From: Escherichia coli
GTDB taxonomy: Bacteria > Pseudomonadota > Gammaproteobacteria > Enterobacterales > Enterobacteriaceae
NCBI RefSeq assembly: GCF_003018235.1
Contig: NZ_CP027437.1
Length of the DNA stretch: 64,000 nucleotides
Reading direction: 5' to 3' (one strand)
The stretch's first letter is position 1; every line of letters begins with the position of its first letter. The translations under genes were made by a program, and so were the position numbers. Below the pieces are notes generated by a model. It was not told where the DNA came from. It saw nothing but the letters and a program-made list of their open reading frames with translations, and ran no database searches. Below are positions 874-24,729 of this stretch, one piece after another.

Positions 874-910
874 TTTATTAGAAATCAAAAGATACCGATA
901 AAGATTCCCT

Positions 911-1267
911 TCATTTTTTTTCAAGCAACTCCTCATAAAGCCACATAACTAACCATTTACTATTTCTTGAATGTTCTAACATATAATGTCCAGACAAATA
1001 TTTAACAAATTCGCCATCATGAAGAGAAATATTTTTATTCATACTGTCAGAAATTATATTCAGAGTCCCTGACTGTACAAAAATATATCCCGTCATCATT
1101 GTTGTAGGTAAAGACAGCGCAGTTTTGTGAATTTTACTAACAATTCTTGAATTATTTACATTTAAACCAACTGTTAATCTAACATTATCTTCAGTGAGAG
1201 GGATGTCAAAATAATCTGACCACTTATAGATATGAAAGTCACTTAAATTTAGAAAAAACTCTCTCAT
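911..1267 (-). CDS. Putative Rhs immunity protein (RhsI-like), AT-rich
   Basis: Small AT-rich ORF immediately downstream of the rhs toxin C-terminus. Start taken at the internal ATG (MREFFLN...) 20 bp after the rhs stop; the longer ORF in the track (to 1384) overlaps rhs. Confidence 0.55.
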   Translation of the reverse strand: MREFFLNLSDFHIYKWSDYFDIPLTEDNVRLTVGLNVNNSRIVSKIHKTALSLPTTMMTGYIFVQSGTLNIISDSMNKNISLHDGEFVKYLSGHYMLEHSRNSKWLVMWLYEELLEKK

Positions 1268-1286
1268 ATTATTCTCATATAAAAGC

Positions 1287-4200
1287 TTAAGGAAAAATAA
1301 CCCCGTATTCTTCAAACGCAGCTCTAGCCGCTGCTTCAGATGCAGCGTTCTGAGTTCCAGTATTTCCGAAATGATAATGACCACTGTGAGGGGCTATATC
1401 AGTACCGAATCGTCCATTCACAACAGTAGCCTCTCCCGCCGCAAGAACTGGTTTTCCATTTGCAATTGCAGCATGAGAAATTTCTATCCCATCTTGCATT
1501 TTTGGTGCAGTTAATAGAGTGCCATCCTCAAGAAGGACATACTTTATATCGCCAGCTTCATCAGCCATATCTGCAAAACGTGGGTCTGATGGTTTCATCG
1601 GTTCAACACCGGCCTCTCTCATTGCAGCCAATTCCTCATCTAAATGTTCCGGTAATTGATTTTTAAACGGGCACCCAATAAAACCCCACGGATCACACCA
1701 GCCCACCGGGTCATGCACATACGACTGCGTGTTCATCCCGCCGCTCAGTTTCAGCGGGTCCTGGCTTAAATACTGCCCCGTTCCGGCATCGTAGTAGCGG
1801 TGTAAATTATACCACAGCCCGCTCTCCTCATCCCGCCACTGGCCCATGAAGCCCGCATCACAGCTTTCACGCTCACTGTCCGGCGAGTCGTTTGCTGCCG
1901 GAAGTCCCCACAGGCTGCGGTGTTTCGTCCACACCTTCTGGCCGTTCGCGCTGTACATCTCCTGTGGTGCGCCGTCCGGGCCGGTCACTATCGGGTAAAA
2001 ATGGCTCCGGTCATCATTCGCCGCCCGGCTTTCCTTTGCCAGCAGTTCAAACCCGTCACGGTAATGCCACTGTTCCCGTAGCGCCGGGCTGCCGTCTGCG
2101 TAGCACTTCTCACTGATGGAAAGCGCCATGCCCTGCCACTGGTAGCGCATTTCACTGATGGCGTGGCCTTGCTGCTTCCATGCAGCACGGATAACGCAGC
2201 GTTTTGCGGTTCTCCGGCCAAAGGCGTCGTAGCTGTACTGCCATACCTCACCGTCTGGTGTCTTTATCTCGCGCAGACGGTCAAAATCGTCCCAGCGGTA
2301 GCGCCACTCCTGTGGGCGAAAGCCGCGTTTTTGTTCTGTGCGCTTTGTCACCCTGCCGCAGGCGTCGTATTCGTAGCGGCTGTCGCCCGCCTGAGTCACA
2401 CATTCACGGCTGTACTGGTGCTGCGACAGAATGCCGTTTATCCGGCTTTCCGCTATCTGCTCGTTTACCGTATAGCGGTAGCGTTCTTCCTGCGCCGGGC
2501 CACCGGCGTCCAGCCGCAGTACGCTGGTTATCTGGTCGCGGGCATCGTACTGGTAGCGCGTTTCCCGCTCCGTGCGCGTTTTCGACCACACTTCATGCCC
2601 GGTCAGGCGGCCCGATTTATCCCACGCGTAGCGGTGTTCGCCCAGCGGTCGCCACGACGCCACGCTCTGGTGACCGCCAGCCAGCCGCTCTGCGCCCTGT
2701 TTTTGCCATGCCGTACGCCCGCAGGCGTCATATCCCTGCTCCTGCATATACACCGCATGGTTCAGCGGCGTCTGTGCCAGCCAGCTTTCCTCATTCTCCG
2801 GGCGGTAACGTCTGCTTTTTTCCAGCCCGGCGGGGGAATGACCGAAGTCCATCCGGTGGCCGTTGCTGCGGTAGCCCATGAGAATGCCCGAAGCATCGTA
2901 TTCTCTCTGTGTTTCCCCGTCCGGCGTTGTGGTGCCCGCCAGCCGTCCGGCTTCGTCGTAACGGTACTCCGTGCGCTGGCCATCCTGCTCTTCCGCCACC
3001 AGGCGATGACGTTCGTCCCACTCCAGTTTTACCTCGCTGGTCAGCGTGTAACCTGCTTCACTGGCATCACTGCGCTCATACACCTGCGCGCTCACCATCC
3101 GGTCATAATGGTCGTACTGATAACAGAGTTGCTGATGCTCGCCGCTGATGGTCGTCACCCGGCCATAGCCATCCCGCGCATAGCGCCATACGCTACCGTC
3201 CGGGCGGTGTTTTTCTGCCAGTCGGCCCTGTTCATCACGGATATAGACGGTTCTGCGTCCGGACCAGTCATCCTCCCCGGCCATCTGGCCCGCTGCATCA
3301 TAGTGCAGCCGCCACTGCTGGTTGCCGCTGCGCGTAAGCTGCGTCAGCCTTGCGGCACCGTCGTAGTTGCAGAGTATCCGCTGCCCGCCCGCGTCTTCCA
3401 CTTCCCGCAGCAGGTCAAATGCCCCGTGGCGGTAGCGCGTGGCCTGCCCCATGGCCCCGGTGTGGAGGGCGATTTTGCCTTCACCGTCATAGCGGAAGGT
3501 TTCCACGCCGCCATCGGCCCGGATAACCGCACTCAGTTTCTCATGCGGGTTATCAGCACCGGGGCGGTACTGCCAGTTCATGCTGCGCCCTTCCGCATCC
3601 ACCAGCCCCGTCAGCCGCAGCCAGCGGTCTTCCGTGTAATGGGTCGTGCGGCCTTCAGCATCCGTATGGGAAAGCAGGCCACCGTGGGCGCTGTAGCCCC
3701 ACTGTTCGTGGCTGCCGTCCGGGTATGTCACTTCCTTCAGCAGACCGTCTTCGGTATGACGGTACTGCCATTTTTGCCCGTTCACTTCCCGCCGGATAAG
3801 GTTCCCTTCGGCGTTATAGCTATAAGCTGCCGTGGTGTGATGGTCACGGTAGGCCGTTACCTGGCCGAACTCATCCCGCTGCCATTCACGCTTGCGCCCG
3901 TTCTCGTCCGTTTCGCTCAGGATACGCCCGGCGTAGTCGCGTTTTATCTGTGTGATACGCCCGCCCGGCTGGCGGATACACAGCGGCTGGTCGTATTCGT
4001 TACGCTCCCATTCAGTGATACGCCCCAGCGGGTCACGCTGTTTTTTCAGCAGCCAGGATTCATCGAACCACAGCGTGGTGGTGGCTCCGGTGGCGTCGGT
4101 ATAATCGGTTCTGCGCTCATCAGGGAAGTAGCGGAAGGTGTCGTTATACAGGCCTTCCTGTGTGCCTGTGGCAGTCACCCGGCCTTCATCGTCATAGCGC

Positions 4201-5813
4201 AGGTGGAAGTGCGTCGGGCCATTGTCGCGCCAGGAACTCAGCCAGCCCTGTTCGGTATAGGTATAGTGCAATGCACCATTAAAGCGGGTCTGTACATCAC
4301 GCAGCCGCTGCTCATCGCCGTGGCTGATATAGTCGTAACGCACCAGCTCGCTGCCGTCTGACTCGTCGGTCACACGGAATATCTGCCCCTGCGGGCCACA
4401 CCTCACCCGCAGACTCAGGCCGCTACTGTGGGTTACGTTTGTCAGGTGGCCGATGGCGTTATAGGTGAAGCGAATTTCGTTGCGGTTGCGGTCTTTTATT
4501 ACTGTTAGCCGCAGACGACGTGCGCCGGGGGAGATGGGCGTAAAGATATAACCCAGTTGTGAGTATTCGTCGAAAATAATAGCCCGCTCACGGTTTCCCA
4601 GGAGGCGATAGTGCGGGACAAGCAGGTTACGGCTACTGTATGGTGCCTGCTCCGTGGAGTAGGCCGGACATAGCCCCTCAGCATCAAAGTAGGTGACGTT
4701 TTTCCCGTTGCTATCGAACTCCAGAAACTGCGACCAGTTACACAACCAGCGACTGCCCAGCAAACCACTAACCGGATGTCGGCCTGTATAAGCACGTTTC
4801 AGCGTCAGCGGTAAAATATGCGAATAGTTGAAATCAGTTCGGTAATCCAGATATTCACCCGTTCCGGTATCCACCGGATCGCTGAACCCCTGACTGATAC
4901 GCTCATTGGCGGCTCTGTTTAACTGCTTTGCTCCCCATAGAGCTGTTAACACCTCCAGACTTGATACAACAGATTGTTCCAGTACCGTCATATCTGCATT
5001 AATCGGCCCATACTGTCCGGTTGTCTTATCAGCCGTGATGGTTTTACATCCTTCCTGAATAACTGCCGAGCAGGTAATTTTATGGCCCTTACGCGCCAGC
5101 GGCAGGCTGTTGACGGAAATAATTTTGCTCCCTTCCACTATCTGCGGAGGAGGACTGCCCGGATCCTTACTACATTCAACCGGATCAGTGACGCGAGCTA
5201 CCGCTTTTCCTTCAAAAAAAACATTAGGTGAGCCTTCTACAATCTGCCCGGTTTCAGATGCCCAGCGGGAACCAATTACCATCGCTGCACCACCGACAAA
5301 TCCACCAGCTAATCCCCCGGCCCCGGCAGCAACGGTGGCAGCAAGCACACCCAATGCGGCGCCCCCTGTAGCGACAACCAGAGCCCCCACTGCAATCCCT
5401 ACGATAAGTCCACCGATTAACCCACCAATAGCACCCAGAAAGGAATTGTTATGAACAATGTGATGACCCACACACGCCGGTATATCTGTTGGGCCGGAAA
5501 CAGCGTGATCTTTACCCCAGGTATCCATGAACCAGTCACCTGCTTTGGTGCCCAGCCATCCCCCCAGCATCCCGCCAGCCAGTCCGGCAATCAAAGGGCC
5601 TCCAAATCCTGCAACAGCTTTGGCTATTCCGGCTGCACAGGTATTTGCTGCGGCGGCTGCCAGTCCCACCTTTGCCGTTGCTCCCACCATGCTGACAGCC
5701 ATTATTCCAGTACTGGCAATATGTCCTGTGGTAGCAATACTCTCCACTGTTTCGGCATTACTGTCCCGTTGGTCCAGCTCCGCTAACTTCTCCTGCGCGC
5801 TTTTTTCCGTCAT
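1287..5813 (-). CDS. Rhs-family T6SS effector: N-terminal Gly/Ala-rich transmembrane region plus PAAR-like domain, YD-repeat shell, DPxG autoproteolysis motif (VHDPVGWCDPWGF), about 130-aa C-terminal toxin domain of unknown type
   Basis: 1508-aa ORF. Many YD repeats (YDxxGR-type), PAAR-like region (VTDPVECS...KGHKITCSA), C-terminal DPVGWCDPWGF followed by a divergent tail. Preceded by a DUF1795/EagR-like gene. Confidence 0.9.
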   Translation of the reverse strand: MTEKSAQEKLAELDQRDSNAETVESIATTGHIASTGIMAVSMVGATAKVGLAAAAANTCAAGIAKAVAGFGGPLIAGLAGGMLGGWLGTKAGDWFMDTWGKDHAVSGPTDIPACVGHHIVHNNSFLGAIGGLIGGLIVGIAVGALVVATGGAALGVLAATVAAGAGGLAGGFVGGAAMVIGSRWASETGQIVEGSPNVFFEGKAVARVTDPVECSKDPGSPPPQIVEGSKIISVNSLPLARKGHKITCSAVIQEGCKTITADKTTGQYGPINADMTVLEQSVVSSLEVLTALWGAKQLNRAANERISQGFSDPVDTGTGEYLDYRTDFNYSHILPLTLKRAYTGRHPVSGLLGSRWLCNWSQFLEFDSNGKNVTYFDAEGLCPAYSTEQAPYSSRNLLVPHYRLLGNRERAIIFDEYSQLGYIFTPISPGARRLRLTVIKDRNRNEIRFTYNAIGHLTNVTHSSGLSLRVRCGPQGQIFRVTDESDGSELVRYDYISHGDEQRLRDVQTRFNGALHYTYTEQGWLSSWRDNGPTHFHLRYDDEGRVTATGTQEGLYNDTFRYFPDERRTDYTDATGATTTLWFDESWLLKKQRDPLGRITEWERNEYDQPLCIRQPGGRITQIKRDYAGRILSETDENGRKREWQRDEFGQVTAYRDHHTTAAYSYNAEGNLIRREVNGQKWQYRHTEDGLLKEVTYPDGSHEQWGYSAHGGLLSHTDAEGRTTHYTEDRWLRLTGLVDAEGRSMNWQYRPGADNPHEKLSAVIRADGGVETFRYDGEGKIALHTGAMGQATRYRHGAFDLLREVEDAGGQRILCNYDGAARLTQLTRSGNQQWRLHYDAAGQMAGEDDWSGRRTVYIRDEQGRLAEKHRPDGSVWRYARDGYGRVTTISGEHQQLCYQYDHYDRMVSAQVYERSDASEAGYTLTSEVKLEWDERHRLVAEEQDGQRTEYRYDEAGRLAGTTTPDGETQREYDASGILMGYRSNGHRMDFGHSPAGLEKSRRYRPENEESWLAQTPLNHAVYMQEQGYDACGRTAWQKQGAERLAGGHQSVASWRPLGEHRYAWDKSGRLTGHEVWSKTRTERETRYQYDARDQITSVLRLDAGGPAQEERYRYTVNEQIAESRINGILSQHQYSRECVTQAGDSRYEYDACGRVTKRTEQKRGFRPQEWRYRWDDFDRLREIKTPDGEVWQYSYDAFGRRTAKRCVIRAAWKQQGHAISEMRYQWQGMALSISEKCYADGSPALREQWHYRDGFELLAKESRAANDDRSHFYPIVTGPDGAPQEMYSANGQKVWTKHRSLWGLPAANDSPDSERESCDAGFMGQWRDEESGLWYNLHRYYDAGTGQYLSQDPLKLSGGMNTQSYVHDPVGWCDPWGFIGCPFKNQLPEHLDEELAAMREAGVEPMKPSDPRFADMADEAGDIKYVLLEDGTLLTAPKMQDGIEISHAAIANGKPVLAAGEATVVNGRFGTDIAPHSGHYHFGNTGTQNAASEAAARAAFEEYGVIFP

Positions 5814-5843
5814 CTGTTCGTCCTTCCCGCTGAACTGGCTGGG

Positions 5844-6275
5844 TTATTTATCCTGCGGCATTCCAAAACAAAAATTCAATAATGCTCCCCGCATCGCTTT
5901 ACGATCCTCCTCTGCCAGCGCCTGTGTTGAGGAATAGGTCAGCGTCAGTACTTGTCGCTCGTTCAGAATTACCAGCAGCAACTGCTGTATCATCACCCCC
6001 TTGTTATCCCAGCTAAATTCCCAGTATTCCGCCGGGCGCTCCTGTACATGACAGCGTTCTTCGACGGTGAACACCATTTTCGACAGTTCGGTACGGAATT
6101 TCTTTTTCTGCACCGCCAGATAGTCATCAAACTGCGCACCATCCGGCAATATTTCACGGGTAACAACAACATTAGCCCCGGCAATCGCACTTAATACCGG
6201 TGTCAGAATATTCATACTGCTGTCCTGCCAGTTTCCTGGCAGGGTGAAATGTCCTTCATTAATTAGATATTGCAT
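5844..6275 (-). CDS. EagR-like (DUF1795) effector-associated chaperone for the downstream PAAR-Rhs
   Basis: 143 aa; N-terminus MQYLINEGHFTLPGNWQDSSMNIL matches the typical DUF1795 start pattern (recalled). Sits directly upstream of an rhs with an N-terminal TM region. Confidence 0.7.
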   Translation of the reverse strand: MQYLINEGHFTLPGNWQDSSMNILTPVLSAIAGANVVVTREILPDGAQFDDYLAVQKKKFRTELSKMVFTVEERCHVQERPAEYWEFSWDNKGVMIQQLLLVILNERQVLTLTYSSTQALAEEDRKAMRGALLNFCFGMPQDK

Positions 6276-6480
6276 TCTCTTCCCCTGACATTAATTAAAA
6301 AAAATACCATTGATTTAATAATTGAATAACACCAAGATACTTGCATCATGAGTTTATATAGTTTTCCCGCCAACCTATATTTGTTTTTTCACACAAATAA
6401 GAATGTACTTACACACAAACCAATAAATCCACTGGTATCTAAAATAATTATTCTTTACATTATCTTAATCACAGATTTTA

Positions 6481-6930
6481 CTAATGGTTTCTCAAAAAAA
6501 TCTTTGCGTAATTAGGATTATTTAACTCTAAGTTCACCACATTAGATTTAAAATTATAAAAATCCGCATCTCTATCATCCTCTGTAACCTTTGAATCAAC
6601 CGTCGACCACACATTCGTATAAAAACTACACTCATGCTTTCCTGGCGTAATATGGTAATCTCTGGCAATTTGTACATAGTCCCCCACCTTCATTTCTCCG
6701 GGAGAGATTTTGTAATATTCCCCTTGTCCAAGGTTGTACATTACACCTGAATAACGAATCTTCTTGCCATCACATTCAACACTCAATTGATCGGAGCTCG
6801 GATATTTACCTTGAGATATGTACCTGACATCTATATATAATGGAATTTCACCATTATTTTTAACACGTACAGCAACATAAACGTCATCTTCTTTGGGTAT
6901 AACATCCACAATAACCATGTAACATGGCAT
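6481..6930 (-). CDS. Hypothetical protein downstream of vgrG; candidate immunity/partner for the VgrG C-terminal domain
   Basis: AT-rich ORF starting just after the vgrG stop; no obvious signal peptide; start codon uncertain (ATG at 6930 or 6918). Confidence 0.4.
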   Translation of the reverse strand: MPCYMVIVDVIPKEDDVYVAVRVKNNGEIPLYIDVRYISQGKYPSSDQLSVECDGKKIRYSGVMYNLGQGEYYKISPGEMKVGDYVQIARDYHITPGKHECSFYTNVWSTVDSKVTEDDRDADFYNFKSNVVNLELNNPNYAKIFLRNH

Positions 6931-6946
6931 CCATAAATTAAGCCTT

Positions 6947-9784: not shown

Positions 9785-9808
9785 GATATTTATTCCTTTA
9801 ATATCGGA

Positions 9809-11834: not shown

Positions 11835-11863
11835 CGCCGGAGCCGATACCACTGCCCGGCGAA

Positions 11864-15949: not shown

Positions 15950-16050
15950 TGCATCAAGGCGGCAAGCGAGAGGATCCCGAAGCATTTATTCCGGTAAGTG
16001 ACTCGGGTGAACGAGTGCAGTCAACGCAGAGGCAACCTGAAGGATAAGGT
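15950..16050. repeat. ERIC/IRU-like intergenic repeat
   Basis: Contains GGTAAGTGACTCGGGTGAACGAGTGCAGTCAACGCAGAGGCAACCTGAAGG, closely resembling the ERIC core (AAGTAAGTGACTGGGGTGAGCG...), in the gap between the Tldi1-like gene and tssM. Confidence 0.5.
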
Positions 16051-16057
16051 GTATACA

Positions 16058-16871: not shown

Positions 16872-16962
16872 TACACAATCTCCTTTTTGTTAAAAAATAA
16901 TAGTCAGATCAGAACACCATATTTTATTGTTAGTTTTCTGACCTAACCATAGTCATATTAAT

Positions 16963-18279
16963 TCACTCCACCACCAGAATTTCCACCCGACGGTTCTGCG
17001 CCCGTCCGGTTTTAGTGCGGTTATCGGCCACCGGTACGGTATCTCCTTTCCCGACAACCCGGATCCGGCTGGCCGGAATACCACCGGACGTCAGCAGTGA
17101 AGCCACTTCCGCCGCCCGTTTTTCCGACAATACCTGGTTGGACGGGAATTCAGCGGAGTGGATCGGCTGGCTGTCCGTGTGGCCGGTCACCGTCACCGCG
17201 CCCCCCACACGCGCAATCTCACGCGCGGCCTTGTCAATCACCGGGCGCAGCGCATCATTCACGGTTTTCTGCCCCGGTATAAACATCGTATCGCCACGAA
17301 AGATTACACGGCTGTGATGGTCATCTTCCTCCACCGTCAGCAGGCCACGGGCGATTTCGTTCGCCAGCAGGATTTTCAGCCGCAGTTTATGCACTGGAAC
17401 GGGTGGCGGCGGTAGATTTTTACCAATGGCGTCGATACGCTGTTGTACGGTTTCGGTGGCGAGGTTCATCCGGTGGCTGTAAAGGCCAAACAGCGTCAGC
17501 ATCACCAGCAGGGCGATTCCGGCGCTCAGCCAGACCGGCACCCGGCGCATCCGCCGCATTCGCCCACTGACGGCACCGGCAAAACCCGGCGAGAGCGTCG
17601 GCGTGATCGGATCGCGACGCTGGACCAGTTGAGTCAGCAGTTGCTGGCGGATATCGTCCAGTTGTTTACGCCCGTCAGGCCGTACACTGTAGCGGCCTTC
17701 AAAACCCAGTCCCAGAATGTGGTAAATGATTTCCAGTACATCGCTGTGCTCCTGGAAGCTGGCGGCCAGACGCCCGATTATCTGAAACAGCTTGATGCCG
17801 CCTTCACTTTCGCCATGAAAAGTCACCAGCAGGCTCTTCCCGGCCCAGACACCGCGTCGCCCCCAGACGGTGTTGTTGGCAGCTTCATCCAGCGCCGTGC
17901 ACACGCAGTAACGTACCGCCAGCACATGTTCGCGGCGCAGGTTTGCCTGGTCGCACAGCGTCTGATACCGGCGGACTTCACGCTCCAGTAGGGCGCGATA
18001 ATGTTCGACAAAACCAGGGGAAAGTTCACGGGGCATTTGCGCCAGCGCGCATAACAGAGGGCTGGCCGCCGCCAGAAGAGGATTCACAGCAGCAGTGATC
18101 TCAGCCAAGCGGAGCTTCAAATCTGGCCCGTCTTCAACCACCACCTTTATATCTTCCCTGCGAAGGCTGTCCTGGACGAGCGTATCGTAACCGTCATTAT
18201 CAGGCGACCTTGTTCCCCTTATTGAAGGCTGTAATTGCAGGGTATTCACCGCAGGTTGCGTCAGAATATCGTCGGTCAT
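16963..18279 (-). CDS. tssL: TssL (DotU-like) fused to a C-terminal OmpA/MotB-type peptidoglycan-binding domain
   Basis: 438 aa; central TM segment; C-terminus ...VTGHTDSQ...SEKRAAEVASLL...NRRVEILV is a typical OmpA-like motif. Confidence 0.85.
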   Translation of the reverse strand: MTDDILTQPAVNTLQLQPSIRGTRSPDNDGYDTLVQDSLRREDIKVVVEDGPDLKLRLAEITAAVNPLLAAASPLLCALAQMPRELSPGFVEHYRALLEREVRRYQTLCDQANLRREHVLAVRYCVCTALDEAANNTVWGRRGVWAGKSLLVTFHGESEGGIKLFQIIGRLAASFQEHSDVLEIIYHILGLGFEGRYSVRPDGRKQLDDIRQQLLTQLVQRRDPITPTLSPGFAGAVSGRMRRMRRVPVWLSAGIALLVMLTLFGLYSHRMNLATETVQQRIDAIGKNLPPPPVPVHKLRLKILLANEIARGLLTVEEDDHHSRVIFRGDTMFIPGQKTVNDALRPVIDKAAREIARVGGAVTVTGHTDSQPIHSAEFPSNQVLSEKRAAEVASLLTSGGIPASRIRVVGKGDTVPVADNRTKTGRAQNRRVEILVVE

Positions 18280-19619
18280 TTATCGCGAACTCCCCACAGC
18301 TCCAGCTCCAGCCCTGGAAACTCTCCGGCGGTATGCATTGCCATGCCACCATAGCGGGCGATATGTTCCCACAACACGCCGTCGCGGCGGATGTCGTAAT
18401 AGATGTAACCGGACTGGAACGGGATCTGACGCGGTGGCACTGGCAGCATCTGTAGAACAAGACCAGGAAGGTGCGAGCGAATCAGTTCCGGCAGGCGTTC
18501 TGACGGCCCTATTTTGGTCTGAGCCGAAAAATGTTGTAGTAAGGTGTCGGCGGACATCTGTGCCTTCACCGCCAATACTAACGAGCTGAAATCTGACAGT
18601 TCGGTAGGTTCAACCACCGCATTGAGAATACCGTAAGTTCCCTCTTCCAGAGGGATTCGCTGCGCCCCACGTATTAGCACAGCATTCAGCAGATACTGAA
18701 CCTCGTCCACCACCGATTTCAGCCCGGCATAGGGCGTCAGGTGCTTATATTCTTTATATTCTTCCGGACGACGTGTTTGCGGACGCACGTAGGTAGAGAG
18801 TTCTCCGGCCAGTGCGCAGAGGTTACGATAGAGTACTTCAGGCGATAGCGGCGTTTTCGACATATGGATCAATAAGGGGCCGAAACGATTAAGAACTTGC
18901 AGAAGCAGGTAATCCGACACTTCCGCCGCTTCATGACCGTGTTTGTCGCTCCCCGTCAATCGTTCCGCCAGCGAATCTGCACGCATTTTTATCAGATCGT
19001 TAATCCACGACAGCCAGGTACATATCAGCGTACTGGCCTGGTAGTTCGCCACTGGCGGGATCAACTCTTTGTCTATATCGACCCGACCATCGGGATGCAG
19101 CGCCGTGATGCGCGTCAGCGGCAGGCCGATCCACGCGTCTGTCACCGCCTTTTCCGGTAACAGTCGCAAGCGCAGGTGGCTAAGTTGCAGCAGTTGCGCG
19201 CCTCGCCCCAGCGAATTGGCATCACGGATTTCACTTTCATGTACCGAAAAACGTGCCAGTGATTCAGGGTTATTGTCGAAACTGGTTTCTTCACTGTTCG
19301 GCGTACGTATTGGCACAGCCAGATAAATCAACTGGTTAAGATGTTCTGGAAGGATGGTCAGAGGCGGCGGGAGTGGTGTATGACCCGGCGCATTAAAAGG
19401 TGTACCGTCAGCAAATACCCCGGAAGCCTTCGTAAGTACCAGTTTTCCGATGTTCAGCGCCTCACTACCAATACCATACTCATTGAAGCCCCAGTAAAAA
19501 GGTGAAAGAGGCAAACTGCGATAATGAATGACATGTTCCAGATAGCGTTCCTGCTGCTGAAACATCTGTGGCAACAAAAATTGTCCTTCACTCCAGACCA
19601 CCCGGTTATTCCAACTCAT
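18276..19619 (-). CDS. tssK: TssK baseplate protein
   Basis: 447 aa; N-terminus MSWNNRVVWSEGQFLLPQMFQQQ is characteristic of TssK. Confidence 0.9.
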   Translation of the reverse strand: MSWNNRVVWSEGQFLLPQMFQQQERYLEHVIHYRSLPLSPFYWGFNEYGIGSEALNIGKLVLTKASGVFADGTPFNAPGHTPLPPPLTILPEHLNQLIYLAVPIRTPNSEETSFDNNPESLARFSVHESEIRDANSLGRGAQLLQLSHLRLRLLPEKAVTDAWIGLPLTRITALHPDGRVDIDKELIPPVANYQASTLICTWLSWINDLIKMRADSLAERLTGSDKHGHEAAEVSDYLLLQVLNRFGPLLIHMSKTPLSPEVLYRNLCALAGELSTYVRPQTRRPEEYKEYKHLTPYAGLKSVVDEVQYLLNAVLIRGAQRIPLEEGTYGILNAVVEPTELSDFSSLVLAVKAQMSADTLLQHFSAQTKIGPSERLPELIRSHLPGLVLQMLPVPPRQIPFQSGYIYYDIRRDGVLWEHIARYGGMAMHTAGEFPGLELELWGVRDK

Positions 19620-19622
19620 AAT

Positions 19623-20156
19623 TTACTCATCCCGTTCTTTAATCACTATGGCGCTTTGCTCTATGCCAGCATCCAGTTCGACTTTTTTCTTTGGCATAAA
19701 GCGGCTGTACCAACTTTTTTCCGGTGGATCAGGAATTTTATATGTAGCCCGCCAGACCGATTTTCCCAGATTGCGGTATCCGGCGAGGATCCCCAGCGTG
19801 GTAGTTTCCTTATTGAGGGCGCGGCGTAATTTTTTCTCCTCGCCCGGACGCAGGATAAAGCTGTCGCGGTGGAGTAAATCATCGGCAAGAACAGCCTTGT
19901 CATTGTCCTGAAGGGACCACCAGTCCGCCGCCGTGAAAGCTGCATCAATTTTCAGTTCATAAACGCGTATCTCTATGGGCGCGGCTTTTTTCTGATTGTC
20001 AGGATTCATCTTATCGGAAGCCTTAATCACCAGATCGAGTCTTTGTGACATCAGGTCCGGCACGTCGTCGCTGTCAATGCTGCACCCGGAAAGCAGGAAG
20101 ACAAAAGACAAAGCTACCGCACATAACCACCCACCGGGGTTACGCCATTTATTCAC
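19623..20156 (-). CDS. tssJ: TssJ outer-membrane lipoprotein
   Basis: Lipobox LLSGC; start proposed at the GTG preceded by AAGGAA (MNKWRNPGGWLCAVALSFVFLLSGC...). Confidence 0.8.
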   Translation of the reverse strand: MNKWRNPGGWLCAVALSFVFLLSGCSIDSDDVPDLMSQRLDLVIKASDKMNPDNQKKAAPIEIRVYELKIDAAFTAADWWSLQDNDKAVLADDLLHRDSFILRPGEEKKLRRALNKETTTLGILAGYRNLGKSVWRATYKIPDPPEKSWYSRFMPKKKVELDAGIEQSAIVIKERDE

Positions 20157-20223
20157 TTTAATTTCCTTTAAAATCAAATAATAAAAACCGGCCAAGCTAT
20201 ATACCTGGCCGGGAAAATGTTGC

Positions 20224-20709
20224 TTAAATTTCTTTGTTAGCTTTGAAATCGTAACCTGCCGTGATAGTGCCGCCGCTGCCGCCCTGCTGGTTCTGCACCA
20301 CGTATTCCTGCTTCACGGTGCTGAAAGAGAGTTCGACTGACTCACGAGAAGCTATTTCTCCCCCCTGACTCCCGCTGGGCGAAACCATTGCTACGATCAA
20401 ATCAGTAAAACTGTATTTGAGGTATTCCAGTGGGTTGCCGCCTGCTTTGCGCATGGTCAGCACGGCTTTCGGAATGTGTTTGCCGGAGGCGCAGTATTTG
20501 AACAGGTTCGGGCTGGCGCGATCGATATAGTGTTCAAATGAAAGATTAGTTACGGATACCTTGCCGGATCCCAGACCGCTACCCGCGTGCATGGTGGACT
20601 CCTGGTGGATATTCCAGCGCCAGCTCAACACCTCAATTTCATTTTTATGTTTGTCATCCATTGACTCGCCGTCAATGCCGTCAATTTTCAGAAAAATATC
20701 ATAAGACAT
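20224..20709 (-). CDS. hcp: Hcp (TssD) tube protein
   Basis: 161 aa; MSYDIFLKIDGIDGES... is a typical Hcp N-terminus. Confidence 0.92.
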   Translation of the reverse strand: MSYDIFLKIDGIDGESMDDKHKNEIEVLSWRWNIHQESTMHAGSGLGSGKVSVTNLSFEHYIDRASPNLFKYCASGKHIPKAVLTMRKAGGNPLEYLKYSFTDLIVAMVSPSGSQGGEIASRESVELSFSTVKQEYVVQNQQGGSGGTITAGYDFKANKEI

Positions 20710-20820
20710 ATTTCATACCTTTTATTTAAATTAATTTTGGTTTATCCGCTTACAAATAAACCATTACTTTACAACACTCTTCCACATATGGAATCGGCAG
20801 AACAAAGGATTGAATATATT

Positions 20821-21192
20821 TCATTTCTTAACACTCCTGGAAATCAACTCATCCAATTCATTTCCATGAATGAAATCTATACATTTCATAGTACTGAAGT
20901 CTGATGCTATAGAACCATCATATTTTAATGATGCATATTTTCTCGCTATCGCATCTATTTCACGAAAAATTTCTACAGGTTGCTGACCATATTCAAGATA
21001 AGCACTAGCTGTAGCTCTGGCATCATCCTGAACGACATCATTTTTATACACCAATGACAAACAATGACTCAAAGCCCAATTGCGTAAGAGCTCTGACTGA
21101 GAATATTTTTCAGTCAATGCTTCCTGAGCATAAGATAATTGACATATCTGTAGCCCACAGAGGCCCCAAAATATTAATTTCAGCCATTTCAT
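20821..21192 (-). CDS. tai4: Tai4-like periplasmic immunity protein
   Basis: Signal peptide (MKWLKLIFWGLCGLQICQLSYAQE); start ATG overlaps the tae4 stop (ATGA), suggesting translational coupling. Confidence 0.6.
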   Translation of the reverse strand: MKWLKLIFWGLCGLQICQLSYAQEALTEKYSQSELLRNWALSHCLSLVYKNDVVQDDARATASAYLEYGQQPVEIFREIDAIARKYASLKYDGSIASDFSTMKCIDFIHGNELDELISRSVKK

Positions 21193-21674
21193 GGTAGTAC
21201 CCACAGGATTCCGACTTCAGGAACAAATGTTCCATTATCTGGATCATTTAGTAGATGGCATTGATCTGAACAAACGCTACCATTCCATAATGTTACATGT
21301 CCCCGAGCATTGCTCCAGCCATGGCCTTTTACAACAATGATGCCTTTTTTACCTGTAAAGTCACCAGGAGTTGGATTATTAATGACAAGATCTGGCTTCC
21401 CCATAATCTGGGTCAGATGTTCAATCATATCATTCACACGATAAATATAAAATTTCTTATCAGAACCACTAACCGTTGCATAGGGAGAACTACGGGATAT
21501 CGGAAATCCCGTAGCATTCAAAACATAACTCATACGAATTGGACAAGCATTTTCAAAATAGCCACCTGAAATATTTTGCCCAACATTTCCGCCAATTATA
21601 AGACCGACATCAGCAACGGGAAAATTCACTTTTCCAAATGCCGACCATGCCTCATTAAATGAAGGTCTACCCAT
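21189..21674 (-). CDS. tae4: Tae4-family peptidoglycan amidase effector
   Basis: 161 aa; Cys44 (ENACPIR) and His126 (ARGHVTLW) are positioned as I recall for the Tae4 catalytic dyad; AT-rich; followed by a signal-peptide protein. Confidence 0.65.
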   Translation of the reverse strand: MGRPSFNEAWSAFGKVNFPVADVGLIIGGNVGQNISGGYFENACPIRMSYVLNATGFPISRSSPYATVSGSDKKFYIYRVNDMIEHLTQIMGKPDLVINNPTPGDFTGKKGIIVVKGHGWSNARGHVTLWNGSVCSDQCHLLNDPDNGTFVPEVGILWVLP

Positions 21675-21726
21675 TTTCTTTATCCTCTAAAAAATCTGCA
21701 TCACAAGCTTTATGAAATATAATAAA

Positions 21727-23241
21727 TCAGGTATTACCCTGTTTTACCGACGGCAGTTTTGTGACCAGACGCAGTGATCCTGTTAACCCTTCAAGCTGAA
21801 AATGCGGGCGCAGGAAGAATTTGGCATCGTAATAATCCGGATTACCTTCCACCTCTTCCACCACCACTTCAGCAGCTGCCAGTGGGCGACGAGCTTTGGT
21901 TTCCTGTGAGGAGTTCACCGGATCGGCATCGACGTAGTTCATGATCCACTCATTGAGCCAGCGCTGCATATCTTCACGCTCTTTGAACGAGCCGATCTTG
22001 TCGCGCACGATACATTTGAGGAAGTGCGCAAACCGTGAACAGGCGAAAAGATATGGCAAACGAGCTGAGAGATTGGCGTTGGCCGTAGCGTCCGGATCGT
22101 AATACTCCTGCGGTTTTTGTAGAGACTGAGCGCCAATAAAGGCGGCGTAATCAGAGTTTTTGCGGTGGATAAGTGGGATAAAACCATTTTTCGCCAGTTC
22201 AGCTTCACGACGGTCAGAGATGGCAATTTCTGTCGGGCATTTCATATCCACGCCGCCGTCATCGGTCGGGAAGGTATGACAGGGCAGATTTTCCACCGCG
22301 CCACCAGATTCAACACCGCGGATCAACGTACACCAACCGTAATGTTTGAAAGAGCGGTTGATATTTACACCCATTGCATAGGCGGCATTGCTCCAGACAT
22401 ATTTGCTGTGATCTGCGCCATCCGCATCTTCTTCAAAATCAAACTCATCGACAGGGTTTGTTTTCGCACCATAAGGCAAACGGGAGAGAAAACGTGGCAT
22501 CGTCAGGCCAATGTAGCGAGAATCCTCACTTTTTCGCAGCGAGTTCCACGGTGCGTATTCGAGGTTTTGGGTCACAATTTTGGTCAGATCACGCGGGTTA
22601 GCCAGTTCCTGCCAGGAGTCCATCTGCAACACTGACGGAGAGGCCCCAGCAATAAACGGCGCATGGGCTGAGGCTGCCACTTTGGCAATGGAGCCGAGCA
22701 GATCCACATCCGGTGGCGTGTGATCAAAATAATAATCCGCAATGATACAACCGTAAGGTTCTCCGCCTAACTGTCCATATTCAGCTTCATAAAGCTTTTT
22801 GAACATGGGGCTTTGATCCCAGGCGATCCCTTTGTAACGCTTCATATTTTTCCGCAATTCATCCTTTGAAAGATTCATAAAACGGATTTTTAATTTTTCA
22901 TCGGTTTCAGTGTTGTAAACCAAATGTTCCATCCCACGCCAGGAGGACTCCAGTTTCTGAAATTCCGGATGACTCAGGATTAGTTTGATCTGCTCAGTTA
23001 ATTTGAAATCGATCTGCTCAATAATCGCAGCAATACTTTTATAAGCGTCGTCACTGACGGTGACGGTATTTGTCAAAGCCTGTTGGGCCAGCGTCTGAAC
23101 TGCTGCCTCAACAGCCTTTGCTGCCTGAGGTGTCTTGGGACGGAAGGCTTTATCCAGGAGCGAATCAAATTCAGTGTCCTGATAGGCAGTGGTTTGCGCA
23201 GCAGAGAGTTCGCCAGTCGCCAGAAGAGTATCGTTTACCAT
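21727..23241 (-). CDS. tssC: TssC (VipB) sheath large subunit
   Basis: 504 aa; conserved TssC sequence throughout. Confidence 0.92.
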   Translation of the reverse strand: MVNDTLLATGELSAAQTTAYQDTEFDSLLDKAFRPKTPQAAKAVEAAVQTLAQQALTNTVTVSDDAYKSIAAIIEQIDFKLTEQIKLILSHPEFQKLESSWRGMEHLVYNTETDEKLKIRFMNLSKDELRKNMKRYKGIAWDQSPMFKKLYEAEYGQLGGEPYGCIIADYYFDHTPPDVDLLGSIAKVAASAHAPFIAGASPSVLQMDSWQELANPRDLTKIVTQNLEYAPWNSLRKSEDSRYIGLTMPRFLSRLPYGAKTNPVDEFDFEEDADGADHSKYVWSNAAYAMGVNINRSFKHYGWCTLIRGVESGGAVENLPCHTFPTDDGGVDMKCPTEIAISDRREAELAKNGFIPLIHRKNSDYAAFIGAQSLQKPQEYYDPDATANANLSARLPYLFACSRFAHFLKCIVRDKIGSFKEREDMQRWLNEWIMNYVDADPVNSSQETKARRPLAAAEVVVEEVEGNPDYYDAKFFLRPHFQLEGLTGSLRLVTKLPSVKQGNT

Positions 23242-23265
23242 GAAAGTTCCTTAATAAAATCGCAG

Positions 23266-23811
23266 TTAGTCTGCTGTTCCCGTTTCACCTGATAAGACAC
23301 TTTCCTGTTGAGCGACAGGTTTTGGCGCACTAGCCAGAGCTTTCAGTAACGTAGGGTCTTGTAATAGTTTGTTGATAAGATTTTCTGCTCCCGCTTTACC
23401 ATCCATGTAGGTTTGTAGGTTGGCAAGCTGAGTACGCGCTTCCAGCAGCTGGTTCAGGGCATCCACCTTACGGGCAATCTGCGCAGGCGAAAAATCGTCC
23501 ATATTCTCTAACGTGATATCGACCATTAACTGCCCTTCGCCCGTCAGCGTATTGGGGACAGCAAACGCCACGCGCGGCGCAATGGCTTTCATCCTCTCGT
23601 TGAAGTTATCGATATCAATATCAAGGAATTTACGATCGGTGACCGGCGGCAGCTCTTCACGCGGTTTACCCGCCAGGTCGGCCAGCACCGCCATGACAAA
23701 CGGCAGTTCGATTTTTTTCTCGGAGCCGTAAATCTCAACGTCATACTCAATCTGCACGCGGGGCGCGCGGTTGCGGGCAATAAACTTCTGCGCGCTGTTG
23801 TTGATAGCCAT
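23266..23811 (-). CDS. tssB: TssB (VipA) sheath small subunit
   Basis: 181 aa; MAINNSAQKFIARNRAPRVQIEYDVEIYG... is typical of TssB. Confidence 0.92.
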   Translation of the reverse strand: MAINNSAQKFIARNRAPRVQIEYDVEIYGSEKKIELPFVMAVLADLAGKPREELPPVTDRKFLDIDIDNFNERMKAIAPRVAFAVPNTLTGEGQLMVDITLENMDDFSPAQIARKVDALNQLLEARTQLANLQTYMDGKAGAENLINKLLQDPTLLKALASAPKPVAQQESVLSGETGTAD

Positions 23812-23872
23812 AATCCTTCATTTCCTTATCAGTCAGCCGACGACCACCTGGGGAGTGGCCCGACGGTACAGT

Positions 23873-24163
23873 TTAAAAATCATACGCAGAGAGTATTTTT
23901 ATAATCTCTTTGTTTTCTTTGTACTTTTCCCGAAGCACAGGGAGTGATTTCTTCGCCGGAGGACACCAGGTATCAACCCCCTTTTCGATGTCTCTTTTAT
24001 CCTTCTTTGGTAAAGAACTGTCCCATTCACCAGCAAGATGCTGGCACATTTCCGCATTACTCAGAAAATGCTGCACATCCTGTGGTAAAGGCGGTTCCCC
24101 CTGAACACAGAAAGCGAACATCATTAACAGGAATGTCAACAACATCGGATAACGAAATGTCAT
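23873..24163 (-). CDS. Small exported protein, candidate immunity protein for the adjacent zinc peptidase
   Basis: 96 aa; N-terminal signal peptide (MLLTFLLMMFAFCVQG); starts 3 bp after the upstream ORF stop. Confidence 0.45.
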   Translation of the reverse strand: MTFRYPMLLTFLLMMFAFCVQGEPPLPQDVQHFLSNAEMCQHLAGEWDSSLPKKDKRDIEKGVDTWCPPAKKSLPVLREKYKENKEIIKILSAYDF

Positions 24164-24165
24164 AC

Positions 24166-24729
24166 TTAATGTCCATCAATTGACCAGTGAGGTATATCTG
24201 TATTGCCGCCAACAAATTTTCTGACGCCGTAACCCAGACCTACCGCCTGAAGCTGGGCATTCATTCCGGTTCGAGGTAGTGTATTAATTGCAACATTCTG
24301 ACCATTGCTCCCCGCAATTGTTAATGTTCCGCTCCAACTGATATTCATATCTATCGCAGTACCGCGTGTATGGTTGGAGCTCAGTGCAGGCGCGACATTC
24401 AGATTATTCATACCATAGGCCGTAACCATAGCCTGCGCCGCTTCAAGCGAGGCTTGCTCAGTCGGGTGAACCCACTCAATATCCATCCCCTCCATCGCCG
24501 GGACGTTTTTTGCCTGAACGATTTCATGAGCAATCAACCATGACCAGTGCATGAGATATGCTCTGGCGGGAGGGCGATATGTTGCAGAGATACTGACCCT
24601 TGCACGCGCATTACCAAGCGCGCGCAAAAAATTATCTACCGATGCACGAAAAGTCCCCTGCAAATCATTAGTGGAAGAACTTCCAGGAAAGCGACTGACC
24701 CACAGTGCGCCACTTAATTCTTTTGCCAT
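24166..24729 (-). CDS. LAS/M15-type zinc peptidase-like protein (H-x6-D ... D-x2-H); candidate peptidoglycan-targeting T6SS effector
   Basis: 187 aa; SSNHTRGTAIDMN (SxHxxGxAxD-like) and TDIPHW motifs; no signal peptide; sits between clpV and tssB with a downstream signal-peptide ORF. Confidence 0.5.
   Translation of the reverse strand: MAKELSGALWVSRFPGSSSTNDLQGTFRASVDNFLRALGNARARVSISATYRPPARAYLMHWSWLIAHEIVQAKNVPAMEGMDIEWVHPTEQASLEAAQAMVTAYGMNNLNVAPALSSNHTRGTAIDMNISWSGTLTIAGSNGQNVAINTLPRTGMNAQLQAVGLGYGVRKFVGGNTDIPHWSIDGH

Follow-up and report, generated by a model that had tools for sequence, protein, structure and literature searches.

The AT-rich segments of this T6SS island are best explained as low-GC polymorphic-toxin cargo held in the slots of an SPI-6-type scaffold, the contents of which are probably swapped mainly by homologous recombination between island variants (a reading to which we give a probability of roughly three in four). 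The window, i.e. the whole 64,000-nt stretch of Escherichia coli chromosome that was analysed, carries over positions 1-32,726 a T6SS island similar to Salmonella SPI-6 and located at the tRNA-aspV site. Its tssM was retrieved from 115 of 5,426 complete E. coli genomes, and the cluster is thus rare in this species. Genome counts given here come from megablast (roughly >=85% identity) against complete E. coli genomes only, which misses diverged homologues. The features discussed below are as follows:

1-874, minus strand: orphan (displaced) rhs core fragment (Pfam RHS_repeat)
911-1267, minus strand: candidate Rhs-tip immunity gene (118 aa; GC 0.32, GC3 0.24)
1287-1679, minus strand: Rhs C-terminal toxin tip (130 aa; AT-rich, fold without known match)
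1680-5813, minus strand: PAAR-DUF6531-Rhs core (Pfam PAAR_motif, DUF6531, RHS_repeat x7; GC ~0.58-0.61)
5844-6275, minus strand: DcrB/DUF1795 (EagR-type) chaperone gene (Pfam DcrB, 94 bits)
6481-6978, minus strand: orf165, candidate immunity/partner of the VgrG C-terminal domain (GC 0.35)
6947-7571, minus strand: AT-rich C-terminal extension of VgrG (residues ~738-945; GC 0.34, GC3 0.21; HEMSH motif)
7572-9784, minus strand: VgrG core (Pfam Phage_GPD, Phage_base_V, Gp5_trimer_C; GC 0.54)
9809-10180, minus strand: orf123, candidate periplasmic immunity gene (GC 0.36; probable signal peptide)
10177-10917, minus strand: orf246, candidate zinc-metallopeptidase effector (GC 0.38)
11103-15730, minus strand: tagF and tssM, GC-rich core (Pfam; GC 0.65 and 0.61, GC3 0.70-0.72)
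16058-16513, minus strand: orf151, candidate Tldi immunity gene (GC 0.34; probable signal peptide)
16503-16871, minus strand: Tlde1, L,D-transpeptidase-like effector (Pfam Tlde1_dom, 48.9 bits; GC 0.42)
16963-20709, minus strand: core genes tssL, tssK, tssJ and hcp (GC 0.59 dropping to 0.48-0.49)
20821-21204, minus strand: Tai4 immunity gene (Pfam Tai4, 70 bits; GC 0.37, GC3 0.29)
21189-21674, minus strand: Tae4 amidase effector (Pfam Tae4, 77 bits; GC 0.40, GC3 0.26)
21727-23811, minus strand: sheath genes tssC and tssB (GC 0.49-0.52)
23873-24163, minus strand: orf96, candidate immunity gene (GC 0.42; probable signal peptide)
24166-24729, minus strand: orf187, probable peptidoglycan peptidase effector, LAS/peptidase-M15-like (GC 0.49)
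24742-26223, minus strand: tssH/clpV with an in-frame internal deletion of 1,152 bp (493 aa versus 877 aa in full)
26224-26555, no strand: divergent tssH-tagK intergenic region, AT-rich (GC 0.28)

Compositional mosaic of the island

Sliding GC, per-gene GC and GC3, and likelihood segmentation all show a mosaic. The first-pass annotation had described GC-rich tssM, rhs and vgrG bodies interrupted by six markedly AT-rich segments, five of which stand: GC is 0.373 at 911-1700, 0.331 at 6300-7500, 0.373 at 9800-10920, 0.379 at 16058-16870 and 0.383 at 20820-21675. These five lie at z = -4.1 to -6.5 relative to same-length housekeeping windows, none of which, over 33-64 kb, is as low (mean 0.513, SD ~0.03). 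The sixth, 23870-24730, proved only mildly poor in GC (0.467, z = -1.4), with 5.7% of backbone windows equal or lower, and scans for change-points and 100-bp steps found no sharp GC step at its edges. As for the bodies, rhs and tssM are GC-rich as described, whereas vgrG, at 0.54, is barely above the genome; truly GC-rich genes are limited to rhs, tagF, tssM and tssL (0.58-0.65), and Hcp, tssB, tssC, tssJ and tssH range from 0.48 to 0.52.

The change-points bring log-likelihood gains of 12-90 nats, versus at most 5.4 in shuffles, and GC steps of 0.2-0.35 within 100 bp are located at 873/874, 1683/1684, 7556/7557, 9756/9757, 11135/11136, 15702/15703 and 16963/16964. The contrast extends to codon usage: cassette ORFs have a GC3 of 0.21-0.33, versus 0.54 +/- 0.06 in backbone genes, and when the AT-rich ones are scored with the codon preferences of the backbone, their log-likelihood is negative. 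With a GC3 of 0.65-0.72, the GC-rich core departs from the backbone too, in the other direction. An additional AT-rich block, overlooked by the first-pass annotation, is the tssH-tagK intergenic region, which is just as poor in GC in Salmonella (0.28) and Citrobacter (0.25).

Contents of the six segments

The AT-rich segments had been regarded as toxin/immunity cassettes, and all six do appear to hold recognised or probable effector/immunity pairs, built on an Rhs tip, a metallopeptidase-like VgrG extension, an HExxH protein, Tlde1, Tae4/Tai4 and a LAS/M15-like peptidase. Tae4 and Tlde1 pass the Pfam threshold, orf246 is recognised by its motif only and orf187 at the fold level; judged from sequence, orf165, orf123, orf246, orf151, orf96, orf187 and the Rhs tip pair are candidate effectors or immunity proteins. 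Hydrophobic N-termini were seen, by eye and in a hydropathy scan, in orf151, orf123 and orf96.

The Rhs locus (1-5813) is an Rhs polymorphic toxin with displaced C-terminal tips, in which a core, a motif and a variable tip are followed downstream by orphan core fragments. The tip starts immediately after the core-end motif ...VHDPVGWCDPWGF, a variant of the PxxxxDPxGL type ending at about nt 1680; the GC change-point falls at 1683/1684, and homology to other strains stops at 1684 and 1669. The orphan fragment duplicates, in direct orientation, the 3'-terminal part of the main core (1703-2581; 876-879 nt, ~94% identity). Its own tip lies to the left of the window (an EndoU tip in MEI003-like contigs), and the annotation of MEI003 includes two further RHS fragments. 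The window's tip, found in one of the 5,426 complete genomes, matched no toxin or enzymatic domain in Pfam and further searches. Directly downstream lies the 118-aa candidate immunity gene, the exact protein always being found in that context; Pfam and other profile and homology searches returned no family match for it, and it has no hydrophobic N-terminus.

VgrG is encoded by one intact ORF of 945 aa, intact in MEI003 too, though annotated there as partial. Its match to Pfam Aspzincin_M35 is borderline (30.6 bits for the isolated extension, with a cut-off of 30, and 28.5 bits for the full protein). Joining a gp27/gp5 core to a predicted catalytic domain, it is a candidate evolved (specialised) VgrG. 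The extension occurs in three of the 5,426 complete genomes and is missing in Ec-U9-1, whose VgrG stops where homology stops, at 7572. Profile searches and a hydropathy scan of orf165 gave no family match and no hydrophobic N-terminus; its start codon is uncertain owing to a 1-nt difference at 6917 from MEI003 and VCSW5.

In the third segment, alignment of orf246 reveals an invariant HELGH...E motif, with matches to Peptidase_M64 and M57 below threshold and a poor AlphaFold model (pLDDT 35). Megablast detected orf246/orf123 in 18 of 5,426 complete genomes but missed their homologues in Ec-U9-1, which represents the common haplotype and shares 34% (orf246) and 58% (orf123) amino-acid identity with the pair. 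That this pair might be an unrelated insert was considered and rejected, as the common haplotype holds this diverged homologue. The Tlde1 cassette is present in 14 of the 5,426 complete genomes, and Ec-U9-1 carries a DUF2645 gene and a hypothetical gene in its place; the homology breakpoints around it are 15786 and 16963, the latter being the stop codon of tssL.

The two remaining cassettes are widespread. Tae4/Tai4, delimited by a local two-change-point fit at 20636-21745 (GC 0.362), was found in 96 genomes, in 94 of them at >=99% identity, as compared with about 115 island-bearing complete genomes; tssM being at 93.6% identity, and at 90-95% in 101 of 115 genomes, this cassette is more conserved than tssM. 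With 116 genomes, orf96/orf187 is essentially universal among island bearers. The orf187 family keeps invariant H88, H120, D127 and H181, and the model (AlphaFold pLDDT 94.5) has only LAS peptidases among its top 18 PDB fold matches (Ply500, LdcB, VanX/VanY, ChiX; TM ~0.4).

Slots, haplotypes and probable exchange of cassettes

The detailed comparison covered about ten loci overall, and slots were compared across six E. coli loci, one Salmonella and one Citrobacter locus. As the first-pass annotation had expected, all six segments sit in gaps that differ from one strain or genus to another. The gaps measure 36-1299 bp for dcrB|vgrG, 1201-4515 bp for vgrG|tagF, -1 or 1603 bp for tagF|tssM, 978-1447 bp for tssM|tssL, 241-2868 bp for hcp|tssC and 241-933 bp for tssB|tssH, and their contents all have a GC of 0.32-0.47. 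Core-core junctions, on the other hand, are fixed (tssL|tssK -1, tssK|tssJ 6, tssJ|hcp ~31 and tssC|tssB ~27 bp). Segment edges match homology breakpoints relative to a typical strain (1684, 6298-7572, 10048-11114, 15786-16963). The position of Tae4/Tai4 may be taken by a BPSL0067/STY0301 pair or be empty, and related loci carry an extra Tge2-like/Tgi2PP cassette after tagF or have tssM and tagF separated by a Tae4/Rap1a cassette. The earlier view of the segments as the strain-specific part of the island thus holds for the four rare ones (1, 3, 18 and 14 genomes), but not for Tae4/Tai4 and orf96/orf187.

Independent, repeated acquisition into a conserved scaffold had also been proposed. The cassettes do occupy variable gaps, but the scaffold is not constant and cassette state tracks core alleles. 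Indeed, the island comes in two haplotypes that differ by 6-13%, with which the state of the cassettes is associated: Tlde1 is present with tssM/tssL alleles >=98% identical to those of the window and absent with alleles at 94% and 93%, and Tae4/Tai4 is absent where the hcp allele is 88-89% identical. An island block (20263-26562) is shared at 97-99.7% identity, with flanks at 79-95%; the chromosomal backbone of the two strains compared is 97.4% identical.

Duplicated core-gene ends were found next to several cassettes:

— in the window, the rhs core end (876 bp, 94% identity);

— in VCSW5 and 24A16CRGN010, the tagF 3' end (111 bp, 86-89% identity), flanking the Tge2/Tgi2PP cassette;

— in 24A16CRGN010, the vgrG 5' part (1,040 bp);

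— in Salmonella, hcp (765 bp, 88% identity), flanking Tae4/Tai4.

Within the window, the Rhs locus alone has such a duplicated end, and no recombination scar was found at the other slots. From the linkage of cassettes to flanking alleles, together with the duplicated core ends, we infer that island variants have exchanged blocks by homologous recombination. The linkage could also stem from old co-divergence without exchange.

Under the preferred reading, the core machinery at aspV would form a scaffold with a few fixed slots (tssH|tssB, tssC|hcp, tssL|tssM, tagF|vgrG, the VgrG and Rhs C-termini each with their downstream gene, and tssM|tagF, empty here), each filled slot holding an antibacterial effector gene and its own immunity gene. 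Homologous recombination between diverged island variants would carry part of the adjacent core genes along with the cassette, and a single crossover or unequal exchange may sometimes leave a duplicated core-gene end next to the new cassette, following the logic of Rhs C-terminal displacement. Four cassettes would here be rare or haplotype-specific, and Tae4/Tai4 and orf187/orf96 long-standing, widely shared residents.

Low GC of the cargo and relation to known systems

Tae4/Tai4 occupies the identical tssC|hcp slot, and is equally AT-rich (GC 0.36-0.41), in Salmonella, Citrobacter and Serratia. Protein identity between E. coli and Salmonella is 82% and 68%, which falls inside the 56-95% spanned by core proteins. 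Tae4 is poorer in GC than its surroundings in E. coli (0.40 versus 0.49), Salmonella (0.41 versus 0.53-0.55), Citrobacter (0.41 versus 0.50-0.52), Serratia (0.38 versus 0.56-0.61), Burkholderia (0.51 versus 0.68), Cupriavidus (0.54 versus 0.675) and Hallella (0.36 versus 0.46). The polymorphic-toxin families of the slots being 10-20 GC points poorer than the neighbouring DNA in every host examined, low GC seems to be a lasting property of this class of cargo and carries no timestamp. The wide distribution of Tae4/Tai4 and orf96/orf187, the linked alleles and the diverged homologue of the third pair likewise argue that it marks a gene class rather than recency or strain specificity.

Two extensions of this reading, both beyond the literature consulted, are put forward only tentatively. 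First, turnover outside rhs might proceed by an Rhs-like displacement of ends, in which a cassette would arrive with a piece of neighbouring core (tagF 3' end, vgrG 5' part, whole hcp) that is left as a diverged duplicate; if true, this would answer the remark in PMC10469887 that VR1 and VR2 resemble hot spots yet are without mobile elements. Second, the GC3 of Tae4/Tai4, at ~0.26-0.29 since before the split of the E. coli and Salmonella islands, would mean that the AT-richness of residents is actively maintained, possibly by H-NS control or by gene conversion that draws on a shared pool of AT-rich sequence, and does not reflect a recent arrival.

A regulatory maintenance, e.g. by H-NS nucleation sites that silence the toxin genes and the island until needed, is somewhat doubtful as the explanation, although it is compatible with recombination between island variants and would account for the absent amelioration. 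It is consistent with the AT-richness that lasts in the conserved residents and, across genera, in the tssH-tagK divergent promoter region (GC 0.25-0.28), and with the H-NS silencing of SPI-6 that Brunet et al. reportedly described in 2015, a study cited by PMC5363993. Low-GC DNA is silenced by H-NS, as cited in PMC12288458. However, Tae4 homologues are also relatively AT-rich in genomes of 68% GC, where the logic of H-NS differs, and binding and expression at the present island are predictions.

It is unlikely that the segments are separate, recent and strain-specific acquisitions from an AT-rich donor into a constant scaffold, with low GC marking the variable part. The rarity of four segments, the coincidence of edges with homology breakpoints and the atypical codon usage would fit such a history, but two of the six segments contradict it: among about 115 island-bearing genomes, Tae4/Tai4 is found in 96 and orf96/orf187 in 116 despite their AT-richness (mild in the latter), and Tae4/Tai4 also fills its slot in three other genera, where its divergence resembles that of the core. 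The haplotype structure and the diverged homologue of the third pair also speak against it. As regards the usual marks of recent foreign DNA, composition deviates, two segments lack a patchy distribution, and mobility genes and repeats are absent from the borders: apart from the rhs core repeat, no flanking repeats were found at segment borders within the window, and the sole IS element (ISAs1) lies at the island end, outside the window. Finally, AT-richness that arose in place, without horizontal exchange, through AT mutational bias in small accessory genes of weak expression on which selection is relaxed, is highly improbable. Although cassette genes are all short, their GC is most depressed at the third codon position and spacers within slots are AT-rich as well (0.23-0.41), the GC steps coincide precisely with the borders of domains or genes and with homology breakpoints, the same slot holds unrelated gene pairs in different strains, and both the 99% conservation of Tae4/Tai4 across E. 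coli and the invariant catalytic residues of the orf187 and orf246 families argue for purifying selection.

The phenomenon itself is already described, in V. cholerae effector modules, in rhs tips and in the variable regions VR1-3 of SPI-6 (PMC10469887, PMC12288458). The SPI-6 papers make no mention of GC content and report no mobile elements that explain the variability. The present island resembles SPI-6 (subtype i3) in its aspV insertion site (PMC12288458), its collinear core genes (56-95% amino-acid identity), Tae4/Tai4 downstream of tssC, peptidoglycan effectors of the Tlde1/Tge2 type around tssL-tssM-tagF, Rhs effectors with orphan tips at the island end (PMC10469887) and an ORF for a ChiX-like L-Ala-D-Glu endopeptidase between tssH and tssB, here the full-length orf187. 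It differs in its host, E. coli, where the cluster is rare, and in the VgrG with a metallopeptidase-like extension and the uncharacterised Rhs tip that the window strain adds.

In rhs C-terminal displacement, conserved and variable domains bear distinct GC signatures (Jackson et al. 2009, PMC2935791), as at 1-5813, where a GC-rich core is joined to an AT-rich tip and downstream gene, and displaced tips, each with a core fragment, are strung downstream. Here, however, duplicated ends also occur beside non-Rhs cassettes in related loci. The V. cholerae modules, with ~9% lower GC, were interpreted as independent horizontal acquisitions (Unterweger et al. 2014, PMC3988814) and share with the present island highly diverse effector/immunity modules embedded in conserved T6SS clusters; the GC contrast is nevertheless larger here (15-30 points versus about 9), the slots more numerous (at least six versus three), and two of the low-GC modules are conserved, not diverse.

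Setting and base composition of the island

The first 24.8 kb of the window match E. coli chromosomes, strain MEI003 being 99.6% identical over the full length, and gene order was taken from the MEI003 annotation and Pfam scans (orfN denotes an ORF of N aa):

Minus strand, from tssH: tssH, orf187, orf96, tssB, tssC, tae4, tai4, hcp, tssJ, tssK, tssL
Minus strand, after tssL: tlde1, orf151, tssM, tagF, orf246, orf123
Minus strand, after orf123: vgrG, orf165, a DcrB/EagR-type chaperone gene, PAAR-rhs, a small ORF, an orphan rhs fragment
Plus strand, to 32,726: tagK, tagJ, tssE-F-G-A
32,858-32,934: tRNA-Asp (aspV), then dnaQ, rnhA and onward to rrnH

The island shares its gene order with the Tae4/Tai4-carrying cluster of Salmonella enterica (amino acid identity: TssM 86%, TssC 93%, Hcp 95%, TssK 85%), which is SPI-6, subtype i3 (PMC12994826). 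Judged by this homology, it is an SPI-6-like T6SS at aspV, of predicted subtype i3.

A first-pass annotation had described six segments of the island as AT-rich toxin/immunity cassettes, independently acquired into a GC-rich conserved scaffold of which they would form the variable, strain-specific part.

Content of the six segments (all minus strand) and genomes with a match. Counts are megablast matches among 5,426 complete E. coli genomes only and depend on megablast sensitivity.
Segment 1, 911-1700: Rhs C-terminal tip and a 118-aa ORF in immunity position; 1 genome
Segment 2, 6300-7500: VgrG C-terminal extension (~208 residues) and orf165; 3 genomes
Segment 3, 9800-10920: orf246 and orf123; 18 genomes
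Segment 4, 16058-16870: Tlde1 (Pfam, 48.9 bits) and orf151; 14 genomes, full length
Segment 5, 20820-21675: Tae4/Tai4 (Pfam, 77 and 70 bits); 96 genomes, 94 at >=99% identity
Segment 6, 23870-24730: orf187 (24166-24729) and orf96 (23873-24163); 116 genomes, 95-99% identity
tssM query, 12000-15000: 115 genomes, 101 at 90-95% identity

The AT-rich character holds for five of the six segments, whose GC content (0.33-0.38) is reached by none of the same-length windows of the housekeeping half (mean 0.513, SD ~0.03; z = -4.1 to -6.5). Their edges are sharp: likelihood segmentation placed change-points at 873/874, 1683/1684, 7556/7557, 9756/9757, 11135/11136, 15702/15703 and 16963/16964; the log-likelihood rose by 12-90 nats at these points, versus at most 5.4 in shuffles, and GC stepped by 0.2-0.35 inside 100 bp. 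Recursive binary segmentation did not separate out Tae4/Tai4, for which a local two-change-point fit was needed (block 20636-21745, GC 0.362). The cassette ORFs have a GC3 of 0.21-0.33, with tae4 and tai4 at 0.26-0.29, versus 0.54 +/- 0.06 in genes of the backbone (the housekeeping part of the window), and their codon usage scores negatively under backbone preferences. The exception is segment 6, with a GC of 0.467 (z = -1.4; 5.7% of backbone windows equal or lower) and no GC step at its edges.

The core is likewise only partly GC-rich. The label suits rhs (0.58-0.61), tagF (0.65), tssM (0.61) and tssL (0.59), but not the vgrG body (only 0.54), nor hcp, tssB, tssC, tssJ and tssH (0.48-0.52), and the island therefore comprises three compositional tiers. 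A further AT-rich block, absent from the first-pass list, is the divergent tssH-tagK intergenic region (26224-26555, GC 0.28), with comparably low values in Salmonella (0.28) and Citrobacter (0.25); this spacer probably serves the two divergent operons as their regulatory region.

Content of the cassettes

Family models establish a toxin/immunity identity in two segments, as a sequence-based assignment; in the other four, position, motif or fold support it well, all functions being predicted. Hydropathy points to a probable signal peptide in orf123, orf151 and orf96. NCBIfam and permissive Pfam scans of the unnamed ORFs returned sub-threshold hints only, and PDB sequence searches with the Rhs tip, orf246 and orf187 gave no significant match.

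The Rhs tip starts directly after the core-end motif ...VHDPVGWCDPWGF (~nt 1680), and the GC change-point at 1683/1684 falls where other strains cease to be homologous (1684, 1669). Downstream of the tip, window 1-874 repeats the 3' end of the rhs core (1703-2581) at ~94% identity, and is therefore a displaced rhs orphan. From window 874 this orphan fragment continues left of the window into an EndoU-type RNase tip, itself followed by a small ORF (8042-9694 in the MEI003 locus, L001; 6574-7659 in locus L015), beyond which lie another RHS fragment and an ISAs1 element, then yafV.

The VgrG extension carries an HEMSH motif and matches the Pfam aspzincin/M35 family at a borderline score (30.6 bits; cut-off 30), and VgrG of Ec-U9-1, a strain with the common island haplotype, terminates precisely at the homology end, 7572. 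The RefSeq/PGAP label 'pseudogene, missing C-terminus' given to vgrG of MEI003 and VCSW5 was rejected as a sign of decay, the ORF being intact in MEI003 (an open frame of 945-950 codons). Relative to these two strains, the window has an extra A at 6917, inside orf165 and near the vgrG stop (6947), which shifts the N-terminal frame, and hence the start, of orf165.

In segment 3, orf246 displays an invariant HELGH...E motif, with M64 and M57 matches below threshold; its AlphaFold model, from six sequences, reached a pLDDT of only 35. The Ec-U9-1 pair is a diverged homologue of the window's pair (34% and 58% amino acid identity) and not an unrelated insert. As for orf151 of segment 4, its 'Shiga toxin A' hits were discounted as noise (17 bits, versus a cut-off of ~735), although one RefSeq record gives the gene that name.

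H88, H120, D127 and H181 are invariant across the orf187 family, and AlphaFold modelled the protein with high confidence (pLDDT 94.5). Among PDB folds, the 18 best matches to the model, at modest TM-scores (~0.4), are all LAS/M15 peptidoglycan peptidases, including Ply500, LdcB, VanX/VanY and ChiX; we thus confidently predict a LAS/peptidase-M15-like fold from the model. The protein occurs widely across Enterobacterales and Burkholderiales, where annotations usually give it no more than the name 'peptidoglycan-binding domain-containing protein'. Salmonella keeps orf96 (85% amino acid identity) with orf187 reduced to a remnant, and a 32-aa ChiX-like remnant was described there at the tssH-tssB position (PMC10469887): both are ChiX-like and share the position, but Salmonella has only the remnant. 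Together, orf187/orf96 look like an uncharacterized, conserved, putative T6SS effector/immunity pair.

Distribution, age and probable exchange of cassettes

Of 5,426 complete E. coli genomes, just 115 carry the SPI-6-like island. A survey of 131,610 E. coli genomes screened only T6SS subclasses i1, i2 and i4b, termed 'known to be present in E. coli' (bioRxiv 10.1101/2025.01.23.634537). Four of the segments are rare and two common, the AT-rich Tae4/Tai4 DNA being more conserved than the GC-rich tssM.

About ten loci were inspected in detail. Over eight loci, core-core junctions are constant (-1, 6, ~27 and ~31 bp), whereas every slot, i.e. every gap between core genes holding a cassette, differs in length and content, always at a GC of 0.32-0.47. 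The Tlde1 slot may instead hold DUF2645 and a hypothetical gene; the Tae4/Tai4 slot, a BPSL0067/STY0301 pair or nothing. Some loci have an extra Tge2-like/Tgi2PP cassette after tagF, a Tae4/Rap1a cassette is an alternative content between tssM and tagF, and orf187 is lost or truncated in strain 24A16CRGN010 and in Salmonella. On a broad scale, all six segments therefore lie in variable slots, and the four rare ones agree with the first-pass description as strain-specific; segments 5 and 6, common within E. coli, do not.

Segment 5 is informative on age. In Salmonella, Citrobacter farmeri and Serratia marcescens, too, Tae4/Tai4 lie in the slot between tssC and hcp, with a GC of 0.36-0.41 versus 0.50-0.61 for the neighbours. 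Again, tae4 lies 10-17 points below its surroundings in Burkholderia (0.51 versus 0.68), Cupriavidus (0.54 versus 0.675) and Hallella (0.36 versus 0.46). A Tae4 scan of genome contigs yielded no more than the Cupriavidus and Hallella loci, both distant; those of Salmonella, Citrobacter, Serratia and Burkholderia were located by way of homologous proteins and then their encoding contigs. Between E. coli and Salmonella, Tae4 (82% identity) and Tai4 (68%) diverge within the range of core proteins (TagK 56% to Hcp and TssB 95%); the age of the pair is thus close to that of the island, and its composition has not ameliorated. Low GC is no clock of cassette age.

Cassette state follows the flanking alleles. 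In all nine Tlde1-bearing loci examined, tssM is >=98.2% and tssL >=99.2% identical to the window, versus 94% and 93% in the two loci without Tlde1; similarly, hcp is at 88-89% in the two loci without Tae4/Tai4, versus 98-100% otherwise. Between the window and Ec-U9-1, identity is 97-99.7% in block 20263-26562 (from hcp to the tssH-tagK spacer), 79-95% in its flanks and 97.4% in the chromosomal backbone; these values therefore point to old, diverged island haplotypes that recombined. The block itself could be a recombination tract or a segment common to two old haplotypes.

Site-specific insertion of cassettes was set aside, as no att-like or inverted repeats bound them in the window except the rhs core repeat. 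Duplicated, diverged core-gene ends were found bracketing cassettes in related loci:

L003, 15445-15555 and 16546-16656: tagF 3' end
L010, 11013-11123 and 12113-12223: tagF 3' end
L010, 6817-7854 and 8913-9949: vgrG 5' part
L006, 9205-9958 and 10980-11742: whole hcp

The tagF copies (111 bp, 86-89% identity) stand on both sides of a Tge2/Tgi2PP cassette in two strains, the vgrG part (1,040 bp) is duplicated beside a cassette in one strain, and two hcp copies (88% identity) surround Tae4/Tai4 in Salmonella. The rhs orphan, the only such scar within the window, shows this signature as well. The duplicates fit the crossover model put forward for rhs tips (PMC2935791), by which cargo could be swapped without mobile elements. 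Together with the flank-allele linkage, they suggest such a route.

The mosaic is an instance of an already described architecture. Low-GC, diverse effector/immunity modules in conserved T6SS clusters were read as independent acquisitions in V. cholerae in 2014 (PMC3988814); distinct GC signatures of conserved and variable domains, with tip displacement, were described for rhs in 2009 (PMC2935791); and the variable regions of SPI-6 hold Tae4 (VR1), Tlde1 and Tge2 (VR2) and Rhs (VR3) (PMC10469887, PMC12288458). [quoted passage not shown] The accepted picture of T6SS evolution is unchanged. In practice, a GC dip in a T6SS island reliably marks effector/immunity cargo, not age or strain specificity. 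The slot map of the E. coli SPI-6-like island is usable and yields several uncharacterized candidate pairs (VgrG-M35-like extension/orf165, orf246/orf123, orf187/orf96), plus an Rhs tip without a family match.

A deletion in tssH/clpV

Compared with MEI003, VCSW5 and Ec-U9-1, tssH/clpV (24742-26223) has an in-frame internal deletion of 1,152 bp (384 aa), which shortens the protein from 877 to 493 aa. The junction lies near 25137-25151, the deletion having occurred between two copies of CAGCGCCGGATCCT and left a single hybrid AAA+ module. Since public assemblies contain the exact shortened protein in 31 blocks (at least 24 contigs), the deletion is a genuine clonal allele rather than an artefact of assembly; going by the sequence, T6SS function may be impaired in this lineage. 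One assembly, GCA_038099465.1 (contig ABRRUJ010000004.1), is 100% identical to the window from tssM to tssC, both cassettes included, and probably represents the very strain or clone from which the window comes.
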